Shown here: piece by piece, positions 1,215 through 62,226 of the stretch
Layout of the letters: the number at the start of each line of letters is the position of its first letter
How positions within the stretch are numbered: position 1 is the first letter of the stretch
Assembly (NCBI GenBank): GCA_951406725.2
Contig: OX597820.1
Span: 72,602,001 to 72,666,000 of the forward strand
Source of the DNA: Octopus vulgaris
Taxonomy: Eukaryota
Length of the DNA stretch: 64,000 nt
Direction: 5' to 3'
The notes under the pieces: generated by a model
What the model saw: only the letters and a program-made list of their open reading frames with translations
Database searches by the model: none
What the model was told of the DNA's origin: nothing
Translations under genes and position numbers: made by a program

Positions 1215-1320
1215 TGTACTACGGATGTTTTGACCCATCCTGCTACTGACCCTTGTGGATGGGACTCTGTTCAACATGTTGCGTTGCATCCATTTTGCAG
1301 TTTGGGTCTCATCAGGTACA
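1215..1320 (-). ncRNA. Type I hammerhead ribozyme motif, probably inactivated (GAAA>AAAA), in a Penelope-like 3' UTR remnant
   Basis: Minus strand: TGTAC-CTGATGA-GACCCA...(~70 nt)...TGGGTC-AAAAC-ATCC-GTA-GTACA, followed by AATAAA. Stems I and II are perfect and only G12 is changed, consistent with CpG decay. Confidence 0.75.
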
Positions 1321-2454
1321 GCCATACATAAAGTTGTATCTCGCTGAAGATCCTGAGTTTTGGTTGTCATGTTGTTATATGCTTGTCTAGTTAGGGAATG
1401 AAACATTGCTACAGTTTTCAATTACTATTATCATTCTATAAGAATTGCCAACATTTGTAAGAACTGTTTCGATCAAAAAAGAAGAAACAGTTAAAGGGAA
1501 AGTGAATGGAAGAAGGTTTAAAACAAAGGAATGGTATTAGAAAAAAGGGAAAGATATATGCAGGCTAGAATGTCTAGGGGTTGGAGGGTTGTTTAGCTAC
1601 TTAGCTTAGGTCGGGATGTATTTACATACATTCGTACACATATGCTTGTACATACATTCGCATGCATACACTCATACATACATTTACACAAGGGACGGCT
1701 GCCCAGAAGATAATCTCACCGTAAGCTTGTCATCACAGTTACCTCAAGAAGAGGGCACCATGTAGACAGTCTGACTCACTCCACATCTATATCACCAAGG
1801 TTTAATAACACACCCCTATGCTTCTATATATGTATCCACATGCATGCATACACTTACATATACATACACATATCCATATGTATATATTTACACATACATT
1901 TTCATACATCTAACCCCCTACATCCATACATATATTTTTATATACACATGCACACACAGGTGTATGCATATACGTATACCTATATATATATCATAAATAT
2001 ATATATATATATATATACATATTCATATACACACACACACACTCTATACATATATATATATATCCACACACACGCATATGGATATATCCACATATACATA
2101 TATGTACTTTCAGTTTCATGGGTACACATGCATGTGCAACCCACATACATGCACATACATATGCTTACGCATACACCTGCACCACCCTCCCCACACAGAC
2201 ACAAATGTATACACACATGCCCACACACATACATATGCTTGCACACATACACATTCCTGCATCCTGTTAGTTTTTCCAAGCGATAACTAATCGTTGGCAT
2301 ATAATATTATTATTATTATTATTAATATACAGCTGCATAGTAAGGTTACATATCTGAACTGATATGTATATCAATATCTACACACAAGTGTATGAGATAT
2401 TGAAAAGCATATTTTTGCCTCTTTCGATAGTTCATCTCTTATATTAGTTTCAAG

Positions 2455-2986
2455 CAGGAGTGAAGAAACTGTAGCCCATGGGTGCAAATATGCCTGCAAG
2501 ACCATTTTATTTCACCCACAGGCTGATATACTCGTATGCACAAAATATACTAAATTTTCTATTATCAAATTTATACAATATTCGTATGCCTATTTGCAAC
2601 ATAGGTCATATTTCTACTACAACTTAAAACAGTTAGACTCGAACTGAAACTCGTCCGGTAATTGCTGTTTGAATGGAAATTTTGTTTTCACTATAAAACA
2701 CATATTGCTAGGTTTGTACCACTCCCTTGAGTCCCAACTACACTCTAGCTGAAGAATATAGAATACCTCATAAGTAATATAAACGTCATAAATTCAGTGG
2801 TGGCATTAATGAAGATGTTATGCGTTAATTTAATTTAACTTATCTTTATTAATGTATATCAGATTATACATAGATATATACATACAAGATTTACACAGAT
2901 ATAAAAAGTTAGAACTTGTGATCCACCTGCAGACCGTTTTCTTTGGAAATTTTTGCCCACCATACTAAAAATTTTCCCCACCTCTG
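2455..2986. mobile_element. hAT-type MITE (Charlie-like TIRs), copy 1
   Basis: Ends CAGGAGTGAAGAAA...TTTTCCCCACCTCTG. Internal sequence is clearly homologous to 23664-24197. Confidence 0.75.
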
Positions 2987-3044
2987 GTTCAGAGGCTATG
3001 CTCTAGTACCTTTTAGTTAGCATACTTTAGTGACTCACATTTGT

Positions 3045-58260: not shown

Positions 58261-59845
58261 GAAATAAGATTAAGATTCATGTAAAAAATAAATAATGCTG
58301 AAGCAAATTAACACCAAATATATAGTGTGTGTGTTTTTATTGGCTAAACTGGCAAAATGACTATTCCTAAATACAACAACATAAGCAATATAGATATGCA
58401 TTAAAGATTAAAAATTACGAATTAGAAATTAAGAATAAAAATTTTAATTATACATATATATGACTAAACATGAACTACTATTGGAACTTACATACCATGT
58501 ACAGGAATCTTTTTTACCACTTCTATACACCAATTTCCTTGAATAATGGAACTGCAACTACAATATCTTTATATATTTTATATTTTCTTTGATCCAGCTA
58601 CAATGGAGAGAAAGAAAGAAACACAGGTTAAGAGAAGAAAGATAGCTGATGGTCAGGTGGGAGCCACATGAGCAAGGGAGGAAGAGTGAGGGATATATAT
58701 ATGTGTGTGTGTGTGTAAATATATATATATACATATATTTATTTATGCACACACATGCATACATATGTTGGTTGAGTCAGTCTCTTTCTAGCTTTGCCTG
58801 TGGGTACATGGGGTCTTCAGGTAAGTTGCAACAACAGCTAACTAAATTTTATATATGTGTGTATGAGTGTGTGTATGTGTGTGTGTGTATGTCTTCGTCA
58901 CTTGACAATCAGTGTTGTGTCATTTACGTCTTCTTAACTTAGCGGTTCAGCAAAAGAGACTGATAGGATAAGTACATGCTTACAAAGAATAAGTTCTGGG
59001 ATTGATTTGCTTGAGTAAAGGCAGTGCTCCAGCATGGCCAGTCAAATGACTGAAACAAGTAAGAGAATAAAAGAAAATATATAAATAAATATATATATAT
59101 ATATATATATATATATACATACATACATGCATGCATATATATACCTATACTATTTATATTATATATATATATATGTATGTGTGTGTCTGTGTTTGTCCCC
59201 TCTAATGCTGGTGTGTCTACATCCCCATAACTTAGCAGTTCAGCATAAGAGACTGATAGAATAAGTACTAGGGTCGATTTGCTCGACTAAAGGTGGTGCG
59301 CCAGTATGGCCACAGTCAAATGACTGAAACAAGTAAGAGAATGAAAGTATATATATATAAGTACATACATACATATCATCATCATCATCATCATCGTTTA
59401 ACGTCCGTTTTCCACGCTAGCACGGGTTGGACGGTTCGACCGGGGTCTGGGAAGCCAGGGGCTGCTCCAGGCTCCAGTCTGATCTGGCAGAGTTTCTATG
59501 GCTGGATGCCCTTCCTAATGCCAACCACTCCCCGAGTGTAGTGGGTGCTTTTTACGTGCCACCTGCACAGGCGCCAGGGGGGGTCCGGCATCGGTCATGA
59601 TCGGTTTGAGCTTTTAACGTGCCAGCGGCACGGAAGCCAGCCAAGGCGGCACTGGCAACCGGGGGGGGGGGTCCAGCTGAGAAAGGTTCCACCAATGAGA
59701 AGAGAGGGAGAGAAAGTGTGGGGGGGTGCAGGTAATATAGGGAAGTACCAGTGGGGAGGGTTGGGGTAAGGAGGAATGATGACAGGTAGGGTTGGTGCAG
59801 GTTCGTATATATATATATATATATATATATATATATATATTATTA

Positions 59846-60535
59846 TCTATATATAAAAAACTCAACTTGCGTGTGTGTGTGTGTATCTGTGTATGTGTCT
59901 GTGTGTTTAACTTCCCGGCACATCTCCTCCTAGCCAACAAATCGTAGAACCACCAAAAATGGGTCACTTAAAGTTTAGGTGAATGAAAATTGAACTGCGC
60001 TATTTCTGTTCCAAAATTCATCTCGCAAGTGCAAAAATCGATAATGTGTTTGTTTAGGCCTTATCCCATGCATTGAATAGTGAACTTTACTCAGTCAGCT
60101 GTTTGACGTGAACTGTGTTCACCACGCGTGCAAGCATGCGTAAATTGCATGAAAAATAAAAAATCAAGATATAAAAATGAATCGCCGTAAACATTGTAGA
60201 AATTCAGCAAAGAAATTAATTTTCGGGATGTAGCCTAGAGGGTTTTTTCGTATTAATCGTTTGGACTTTGTGAACACATACCAATTGTTTTCATAACATT
60301 TTTAACGCTTTGAAGTAAATGTGACCATTTTGTGTTGAGTCGGCAGTTTGAATCACTTTAACCAAATTTTAGCAGGCCAGATTTTTTATCATCATGATAC
60401 ATTGCCAGTGACTCCCTGAAACTCTCCCCTGAAATCCCCGTTGAGAAATCTATTATATATATAATAATACTTTGAATGTGACTCCTGAGAAAGAGTAAAA
60501 GTAATTATCCGATGAACGATGGGTATTACTGCTAG
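59846..60535 (+). mobile_element. Non-autonomous Helitron in (TA)n
   Basis: 5' TCTATATATAAAA, (GT)n, 3' degenerate hairpin (ATCCGATGAACGATGGGT) and CTAG followed by T. Confidence 0.8.
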
Positions 60536-61707
60536 TGATATATATATATATATATATATATATATATGTGTATGCATATGTCTGTGTTTGTCACCTCCAA
60601 GGCTGGTGTGTCTACGTCCCTGTAACTTAGTGGTTCACTAAAAGAGACCAATAGAAAAAGTACTAGGCTTACAAAGAATAAGTCCTGGAGTCGATTTGCT
60701 CGACTAAAAGCAGTGCTCCACCATGGCTGTAGTCAAATGACTGAAACAAGTAAAAGAGTAAAAGAGAATATAAGAACTAAGGTTGATTTCTCTGATTAAA
60801 CACGTCAATCGGTGCGCCAGCATGACCACAGTCTAATGACTGCAACAGGAAGAGAGTAAAAAAAAAGAGCAAAACTGTCATATAGTACTCATAGTAACCC
60901 AACAAGGGTCCACTTAAGATATCCTTCAATGTGGAAGTAAAAAAATATAAAGCTGAAGTTACATCTCTCAACCCTTGGCAGCAGAACAAAAAGACAAACA
61001 AAAAATCTAGATATACTGGTCGGAGAGCGAATAAATTCAAAGAGCATTATTTTAATTGTACTATCTCATTCAGATATATTGCTAAAATAAATACCACAAA
61101 GCTGTCAAATTACTTATGGTAATTAAAAGTAAATGGAATAAATTTTGTCAGAGAGTGGAAAATATTAGAAAGCATAAAACCATATAAAACCAGAATTAAA
61201 TGGTTTGACTTCCATACAAACAGGAAAATAATCATCTTCTCAATGTTCATACATTGGGAAATCATCATCATCATCATCATCATCATCATCATCATTGTGT
61301 AGCATCTGCTTTCCATGCTAGCAAGGGTTGGACGATTTGACTGAGGACTGGCAAACCAGATGGCTGCACCAGGCTCAAATCTGATCTGGCAGAGTGTCTA
61401 CAGCTGGATGCCCTTCCTAACGCCTACCACTCCGAGAGTGTAGTGGGTGCTTTTACGTGCCACCAGCACGAGGGCCAGTTAGGCGGTACTGGCAATGGCC
61501 ATGCTCAAATGGTGCTTTTTACGTGCCATCAGCACAGGAGCCAGTCAAGCGGCGCTGGCAACGATCTAGCTTGAATGTCTTTTCATGTACCAGTAAGGCG
61601 ACGCTGCAATTTTACTTTCTATAGTTAGGCACTCCACTTGGAACCTTTTTTTCATAATTTTCCCTATCCTTTTACCTATGTGTGTATGTGAGCATGTTTA
61701 TATATAC

Positions 61708-62226
61708 ATATATATTTTTTAATAATATATTCTTATTAATATTAGGAAATCAATATCAAAACTCCTCAGAAAGATATACACATGTGAAAAATAATTTTTG
61801 TATTAAAAATATATGAATAAATATAAACATGTATAAAAATATATGTAAATATGAATAAGTATAAATATATAATATATATGACAGTTTAAAAGTTTTGAAT
61901 TAATTATTTAAAGCATCTTACAATTGTTTCACAGAAGAGTAGTCCCTATAATGAAATCCTATATAGATAAGCATTTATAGACAACGCTTCTGCTCTTCAG
62001 AGATATAAAACTTGAATTCTGTATAACATATCGAATGATAATTTTTTTTTTAAATTTGAAGTAAAACTATAAAATGGTGTTTGTTTGAGAGATAAATTAA
62101 AAACTACTACTTTTGATGAAAGTTTTTAATACAACAATTATTTTGCACACATGTATATCTTTCTGAGGAGTTTTGATATTGATTTCCTAATATTAATGAT
62201 AATATATTATTAAAAAATATATATGT
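61708..62226. mobile_element. Fold-back Penelope-like derivative with a hammerhead in the loop
   Basis: Arms ~61708-61810 / 62123-62226 (TTAATATTAGGAAATCAATATCAAAACTCCTCAGAAAGATATACA and its reverse complement). Confidence 0.82.
61914..62005 (-). ncRNA. Type I hammerhead ribozyme motif
   Basis: Minus strand: TATCT-CTGAAGA-GCAGAAG...(~55 nt)...CTTCTGT-GAAAC-AATT-GTA^AGATG. Palindromic stem III ACAATTGT. Confidence 0.82.

Follow-up and report, generated by a model that had tools for sequence, protein, structure and literature searches.

The stretch of DNA examined here (the window) is 64 kb of the 2.8-Gb genome of Octopus vulgaris (assembly GCA_951406725.2, contig OX597820.1, positions 72,602,001 to 72,666,000 of the forward strand), with a GC content of 29-42% and many microsatellites. 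It holds 16 copies of the type I hammerhead ribozyme (HHR), belonging to 11 families, A to K, and 11 insertions (Table 1), probably Penelope-like element (PLE) ends. A sequence-only reading had named 15 sites as HHR folds and put the total at about 15-17. All 15 coordinates fall on the stated strand and no more than ~1 nt from where a fold has its low end, the fold consisting in order of stem I, a CUGANGA-type core, stem II, GAAA, UH and the other side of stem I; a 16th copy was found at 23184-23230 (-); the number held, yet only six of the 15 (29445, 31302, 31956, 35525, 57817 and 61914) are intact. The class of ribozyme is a known one, and self-cleavage is predicted.

The descriptor required an intact core, at least 4 bp in stem I and at least 3 bp in stem II, and allowed a 10.1-11.1 mismatch or one extra base. 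The window matched it six times, against a mean of 0.03 (maximum 1) across 30 dinucleotide shuffles, a count above chance. Relaxing stem I to at least 3 bp gave seven matches against 0.07 in shuffles; a stricter variant gave only two, and looser descriptors found 0.2-0.8 matches in shuffled sequence. The other nine of the 15 sites are weaker matches or have decayed, in many cases at CpG positions. Site 58216 fits only with a 3-bp stem I and site 23258 only with a 2-bp stem II, and the seven damaged sites (1215, 13648, 13729, 30631, 30798, 31072 and 31623) are counted as HHRs because the consensus of their family is a complete fold.

These consensus sequences were obtained by searching the genome with each element, which gave 371-6146 first-look candidates; 40 per family were scored and 14-26 aligned. 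All ten aligned families have a consensus that folds as a complete type I HHR, and the copies of family H are intact and 99-100% alike. The stretch from A15.1 to U16.1 is a perfect palindrome in seven of ten consensus sequences (B, D, E, F, G, I and K) and an imperfect one in A, C and H. Among 55 probe pairs a single one is related (A and E, 70% over 92 nt), in line with the earlier estimate of about ten families with mutually unrelated stems; the evidence for the structure is that 11 stem sets, for the most part unrelated to one another, all pair. Minimum-energy folds of monomers contain helices I and II for B and D, not for K, and are uninformative for dimers. AATAAA, noted earlier behind several HHRs, follows the predicted cut in 5 of the 11 copies checked and in 4 of 10 family consensus sequences. 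Intact HHR families absent from the window were seen at L026, L049, L075, L093, L116, L191, L194, L197, L210, L213 and L214, several with a long loop II, and thus the diversity of the genome exceeds 11 families.

Rfam detects none of these motifs: it returned nothing for the window at the gathering score, the matches listed at E <= 1 (150 of 248) were all microRNA families on microsatellites or hairpins, and three near-consensus loci gave neither an HHR nor a tRNA match. Further candidates were rejected as HHRs, namely 1344 (+), whose family consensus lacks the core; 2749 (+) and 23959 (+), which belong to a repeat with terminal inverted repeats and a consensus without the core; 19003 (+), with a stem I of 3-4 bp and a stem II of 2 bp; and 61769 (-) and 62163 (+), where the GAAA partner is absent within 100 nt. 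The repeat at ~2749 and ~23959 (+), ~530 bp long with 14-bp terminal inverted repeats and 653 candidates, resembles a DNA transposon of the miniature inverted-repeat transposable element (MITE) type. At 30080-30125 (+) CTGATGA stands immediately 3' of GAAA and is followed by a 3-bp hairpin, which could be a permuted or decayed HHR; no second copy occurred among the fetched loci.

All five opposite-strand pairs of the window face outward, as had been proposed, and in the fetched loci 126 such pairs face outward and 5 inward, a ratio biased by the fold-back queries. The eight sites placed at 29.4-35.6 kb are all real but represent only five insertions: F is nested in the end of E, whose last bases continue beyond it, and G and H lie in the (TA)n runs that follow. 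The footprint of PLE insertion, that is 5' truncation, an inverted copy and a tail at one end, is present in B, F, G and H. Inverted truncated copies, tails and a (TA)n bias are standard PLE traits (PMC8557442), and opposite-strand HHR pairs 100-700 bp apart have been reported (PMC4209133).

Table 1. Hammerhead families and associated features of the window (candidates are first-look matches in the genome).
Feature	Position	Strand	Remarks
Family A HHR	1215..1320	-	GAAA changed to AAAA; long loop II; AATAAA 6 nt past predicted cut; 766 candidates
Family B fold-back insertion	13511..13861	.	tail on left arm only; 13-14-bp target-site duplication; 3888 candidates
Family B HHR, decayed	13648..13697	-	family core G3-C8 (GUGAACA)
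Family B HHR, decayed	13728..13777	+	G3-C8 core retained; GAAA changed to AAAA
Family C HHR, decayed	23184..23230	-	absent from the earlier list
Family C HHR	23257..23303	+	intact core, damaged stem II; within fold-back 23029-23429; 764 candidates
Family D HHR, intact	29445..29519	-	1076 candidates
Family E, 3' stub of Hydra-type PLE	30211..30745	+	HHR ~30631-30735, stem II damaged; 1939 candidates
Family F fold-back inside E	30752..31195	.	stub of Penelope/Poseidon-type PLE; 6146 candidates; 714 exact intact HHRs
Family F HHR	30797..30842	-	GAAA broken
Family F HHR	31071..31116	+	GAAA broken
Family F tRNA-like segment	30906..30995	-	A-/B-box-like by eye against consensus; then (AAT)n
Family G fold-back in (TA)n	31267..31845	.	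tail on right only; 2939 candidates
Family G HHR, intact	31303..31390	-	U10.1-U11.1
Family G HHR	31624..31711	+	stem II damaged
Family H element	31939..35660	-	young 5'-truncated Hydra-type PLE in (TA)n; 945 candidates, 99-100% identity
Family H HHR, intact	31956..32006	-	U10.1-U11.1; 3-bp stem III
Family H endonuclease fragment, C-terminal	34892..35272	-	residues 593-718 of 718-aa frame, 99% identical
Family H HHR of inverted copy, intact	35525..35575	+	
Family H 68-nt tail	35593..35660	+	same sequence between HHR repeat and ORF start in ORF-bearing copy
Family I N-terminal ORF codons, Hydra-type	57240..57400	-	E 1.5e-4 to H protein; frame enters AAC/AAT repeat
Family I HHR, intact	57817..57944	-	loop II ~100 nt; 371 candidates
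Family J HHR-like fold, weakest	58216..58260	+	3-bp stem I and bulge; loop III non-palindromic; 1949 candidates
Family K insertion	61702..62230	.	intact HHR 61914-62005 (-); short inverted end copy ends before HHR; 1095 candidates

Reading frames joined to the hammerheads

Five families (E, F, H, I and J) join open reading frames (ORFs) of PLEs, three of Hydra type, one of Penelope/Poseidon type and one possibly of Neptune type. Other copies of family H carry open frames of 718-722 aa (713 aa from the first Met) with RWR at 38, DKT at 116, YRDDG, CxCX5C at 567, CxxC at 667, CxH at 695 and a C-terminal endonuclease. RWK-like, DKT, CxCX5C, CxxC and CxH motifs are features of the Hydra clade (Craig et al. 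2021, PMC8557442, section 11), and family H has them together with the C-terminal endonuclease, the HHR and the (TA)n targets of that clade; both of the latter are given for Hydra-1_Obim of Octopus bimaculoides in the supplement of the same paper. On these motifs and a comparison by eye with the published alignment, not on a tree, family H is classed as a Hydra-type PLE. It differs from the known Hydra elements, Hydra-1_Obim included, in its protein and HHR sequences, in a ~2.9-kb microsatellite-rich 3' region and in being very young and abundant, with 945 DNA candidates at 99-100%; only a few Hydra families outside cnidarians were found in that study (PMC8557442).

The arms of the family H insertion in the window are 100% identical over 205 bp, and both of its ends lie in (TA)n. 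In an ORF-bearing copy the start codon stands ~175 nt after the HHR, and the 68-nt tail of the window is that leader. Among 30 H ends, 18 carry the tail, which ends at identical bases, and 12 stop at or near a second site, the tail-less ends running into (TA)n. The two end types match the two start sites of the reverse transcriptase (RT) described for the anole PLE (PMC11167929). Many H copies (L089, L120, L122 and others) have a frame break at a C run at the junction of RT and endonuclease; the query favoured such copies, and the break may either characterise a subfamily or stem from misassembly of the homopolymer. An old Hydra-type endonuclease remnant, 36% identical to the H protein (E ~1e-6), lies at 60946-61185 (+) with no link to family K.

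Four of 15 family E loci have a Hydra-type ORF contiguous with the HHR, one of 15 family I loci has such an ORF joined to it, and in the window the first Hydra-type codons stand ~430 nt downstream of the HHR of I. Family J has a GIY-YIG-like ORF joined upstream in 2 of 15 loci; the ORFs of E, I and J are known as fragments only. For family F, 2 of 30 loci picked by an intact HHR alone extend upstream into an endonuclease frame; conversely, 27 of 30 loci picked by that frame have the HHR, and two have RT motifs of the clade which we take to be Penelope/Poseidon, motifs and endonuclease being seen in fragments. Because E, F, H, I and J extend into the ORFs of PLEs, either elsewhere in the genome or within the window, their short copies are mostly 5'-truncated stubs. 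The suggested link to PLEs, the minimal type I HHRs and the diversity of families are supported, whereas the label non-autonomous is not supported for the set as a whole: a fixed ORF-less unit, of ~210 bp, was seen in family B only, and A, C, D, G and K are unassigned.

Proposed insertion by PLE proteins and competing explanations

Based on our data we propose, at a probability of about 0.85, that the 15 sites are type I HHRs in the ends of 11 families that were inserted by PLE proteins as 3' stubs. Starting from the folds, the families, the ORF links, the outward pairs, the one-sided tails and the AT-rich or (TA)n flanks, we infer the enzymatic steps, dimer formation and cleavage as follows. 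A PLE protein would nick AT-rich DNA and its RT would begin at an internal position of the RNA, at either of two sites downstream of the HHR, so that some ends have a tail and others lack it. Most cDNAs would be short and, with the HHR near the 3' end, nearly every stub would keep it; an inverted 5'-truncated copy would then place a second HHR on the opposite strand, facing outward. Later insertions would go into AT-rich or (TA)n sequence at the ends of earlier elements and so build the pile at 29-36 kb. The HHRs would work only in source elements, either by dimerising via a palindromic loop III or assisted by the PLE protein, and most genomic copies would be passive. A fold-back has its two HHRs on opposite strands; a single transcript would therefore combine one HHR with the antisense of the other, which precludes a dimer, so that most copies are likely inert. 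Family B would be a non-autonomous passenger of the PLE machinery, and the short copies of family F would probably derive from RNA starting at the internal tRNA-like segment.

Much of this sequence is modelled on the anole Poseidon element PAc (Frangieh et al. 2024, PMC11167929), which shares with the octopus elements an HHR near the ORF start, two RT start sites around a tail and AT-rich targets. Its protein nicks AT-rich DNA, its RT starts at two internal sites bounding the tail, and its HHR cleaves only with the protein.

Several observations weigh against the proposal. Anole HHR mutants insert normally in vitro, and none of the RNA-seq reads ended at the cut (PMC11167929), so that a role of the HHR in mobilisation is unproven. 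For the octopus elements, no read of three RNA runs, chosen by species label only, lay on the H end, which says nothing on expression, and no RNA record was listed as containing family B. The palindrome of loop III is absent in family J. Within-family covariation is weak: each family has 0-5 cells with double compensatory stem changes, most of them from CG to TA as CpG decay would produce, and two rows of family C are misaligned. The covariation check that had been suggested yielded little beyond one clear case, a TA to CG swap of a stem I pair in a single subfamily of G (L202, L221). None of the ORFs, those of H, E, F and J included, scored above cutoff in Pfam, the weak GIY-YIG match (E 0.0035) being confined to an unrelated frame in L197, and the clade calls accordingly rest on motifs and alignments by eye, with no tree. 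Lastly, 14-20 loci for each of families A, C, D, G and K, covering 1.5 kb on either side, gave no proven ORF partner: ORF pieces adjoin A in 1 of 20 loci, endonuclease pieces lie downstream of G in two loci, and none are linked to C, D or K.

The sequence-only reading took the motifs for non-autonomous elements mobilised by PLEs; that they are retrozymes which cleave themselves, form circles and rely on PLE proteins for copying we consider unlikely. Such an origin would suit family B, which in 30 of 30 sampled loci is an ORF-less ~210-bp unit with a fixed start and unrelated or self-inverted flanks, and the five families without a proven ORF; in addition, derivation of retrozymes from PLE terminal repeats has been argued (10.64898/2026.07.22.740005). 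Metazoan retrozymes that are not of the long terminal repeat (LTR) type likewise have type I HHRs, short non-coding units and suspected PLE mobilisation (PMC7229834; 10.64898/2026.07.22.740005). But five families join ORFs, and copies of B start ~50 nt upstream of the predicted cut instead of at the cut itself. Non-LTR retrozymes are defined by their tandem organisation, and their arrays are expressed as circular RNAs, whereas the 16 copies of the window are single or inverted, with no head-to-tail HHR array among them.

Insertion of PLE stubs is likewise preferred over the idea that the window is a special locus, either a ribozyme hotspot or a regulatory array kept by the host, which we regard as very improbable. 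In a background sample of forty evenly spaced 10-kb stretches (400 kb) there were 15 intact C3-G8 motifs, against 0.5 in 10 shuffles, a density of 37.5 per Mb (95% range 21-62). At 94 per Mb the window has 2.5 times this mean, six motifs against 2.4 expected per 64 kb, with p = 0.059 by motif and 0.091 by insertion, and its HHR density is not clearly unusual; the very high density claimed for it is true of the genome and not particular to this stretch. Five of the 11 insertions do fall inside 2.6 kb, with a post hoc p of ~0.005, but the cluster is one of nested insertion that includes the very young H, and nine of the 15 sites are weak or have decayed. That the fold-backs are MITE-like DNA transposons with HHR motifs by chance, for which one could cite the long inverted arms, the silence of Rfam and the yield of loose descriptors in shuffles, is already contradicted by the unequal arms, one-sided tails and variable junctions, by the joins to RT and endonuclease ORFs, and by unrelated stems that pair in every consensus.

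Elsewhere in the window, two ORF fragments lie at 50850-51302 and 51622-52125 (+), for which Pfam gave nothing above cutoff; they look like the restriction-like endonuclease domains found at the C-terminus in non-LTR retrotransposons. Eleven copies are present of a short interspersed repeat that is very common (11802, 36157, 37932, 39145, 39987, 48313, 48497, 50761, 52225, 53522 and 54496).

Scale and two variants

Density and diversity of HHRs alone are no surprise, as multi-family genomes and opposite-strand pairs were published in 2014 and an octopus Hydra HHR in 2021. The new parts are the scale and two variants, a G3-C8 core and a tRNA-like segment in a PLE, neither of which we found in print. 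Extrapolation from the 400-kb sample gives an estimated ~105,000 intact motifs in the genome (59,000-173,000). Minimal HHRs counted with other descriptors number ~2,000 + 1,300 in Schistosoma mansoni, 4,000 in the coelacanth and 9,000 in Xenopus tropicalis (PMC4209133), and axolotl retrozyme copies up to 120,000 (PMC7229834). As in the PLE minimal HHRs of Cervera and de la Pena (2014, PMC4209133), the octopus motifs have type I topology, a short palindromic helix III and, in B, F and J, an extra base before helix II; there too a genome holds many families, mostly as single or opposite-strand motifs from truncated PLEs. They differ in a loop II of up to ~100 nt (A, E, G, I and K), in the G3-C8 core of B, and in the estimate of ~10^5 intact copies against ~2,000-9,000 by other descriptors. 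The U3-A8 core of that study also occurs here: intact type I HHRs with this pair and stems of 6-7 bp lie in the sampled stretches at L201:1869 (-) and at L209:7050 and 8385 (+), the two L209 copies being identical direct repeats 1.3 kb apart. The main text of a 2026 octopus repeat annotation makes no mention of ribozymes.

In the consensus of family B the core is GUGAACA, stem I has 7 bp and stem II 5 bp, with one extra base, and the palindrome is AAUAUU; it is because of this consensus that sites 13648 and 13729, which lack CUGANGA, are given HHR status. Among 46 family B copies from DNA searches, G3 is kept in all 46 and C8 in 44, and the exact 46-nt form has 865 copies in the genome (control 0). 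In about half of 30 sampled B loci the element is carried as a passenger by a younger composite repeat, so that independent insertions of B are fewer, and a genome search for a continuation of B gave mostly matches to a neighbouring repeat. This young composite repeat (L125, L132-L134, L138, L140-L143, L145-L154), 97-98% identical over 0.75-1 kb, carries the B fold-back and also occurs in inverted pairs. In a family this young, strong conservation is not in itself proof of selection. Natural U3-A8 and U10.1-U11.1 pairs are published (PMC3088659; PMC4209133), and G3-C8 is known as a laboratory variant (PMC3884650, PMC11167929): in PAc the engineered C3G/G8C mutant had its cleavage partly restored, whereas here G3-C8 is fixed in a natural family. 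No such natural family was found in our literature searches, though Lunse et al. 2017 may report one.

The tRNA-like head of family F lies just after the endonuclease frame in 25 of 30 loci selected by that frame, hence inside the 3' end of the ORF-bearing element. It is not separate from its autonomous partner, unlike a tRNA-derived short interspersed element (SINE), which shares only the 3' tail. Thirty HHR-selected loci comprise 11 without a head and 19 with a sense head, of which two continue into the ORF, nine begin at -7 to +3 of the head start and eight begin inside the head; among copies that reach the head start, 9 of 11 thus begin within -7 to +3. Four starts at +40 may reflect a deletion in the reference. 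The longest T run in the 267-nt unit is 3 (no T4 run), and Rfam gave no tRNA match to the segment. A low-threshold ARAGORN call of the head was dropped as evidence since HHR arms were called too. The short copies may stem either from Pol III RNA made from the segment or from an RT stop or fold-back at a small hairpin. At L240, L244 and L251 a second, unrelated sequence stands upstream of the F HHR arm, ending in (AAT)n in two of them, possibly a second fusion partner.

The promoter-like head of the Schistosoma Sm-alpha and Sj-alpha elements is of the Pol III kind. Family F resembles these short abundant repeats in having such a head followed by an HHR, and differs in that its head lies in the 3' end of an ORF-bearing PLE and its copies have the inverted footprint of PLEs (PMC6765202). 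For PAc, the accessible text describes no tRNA-like segment (PMC11167929), and our literature searches found no description of a tRNA SINE mobilised by a PLE. We entertain, tentatively and at less than even odds, a wider view in which this genome is among the richest known HHR reservoirs, with ~10^5 intact copies and three core pairs (C3-G8, U3-A8 and G3-C8), the G3-C8 ribozyme of B cleaves with a dimer partner or the PLE protein, and F is a Penelope element in which a tRNA-derived Pol III promoter of its own follows the ORF and drives a SINE-like RNA, making it an autonomous element with a built-in parasite.

As HHR mutants still insert in vitro, the octopus families offer useful material for testing what hammerheads do in PLEs: a Hydra-type element that is very young, with frames of 718-722 aa still open and two sharp end positions, and many families with independent stems. 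A G3-C8 core that is both natural and fixed would demonstrate selection on the 3-8 pair, in a form missed by searches for CUGANGA, and a tRNA-like segment within a PLE that has an ORF would open a direct path from PLEs to SINE-like elements.

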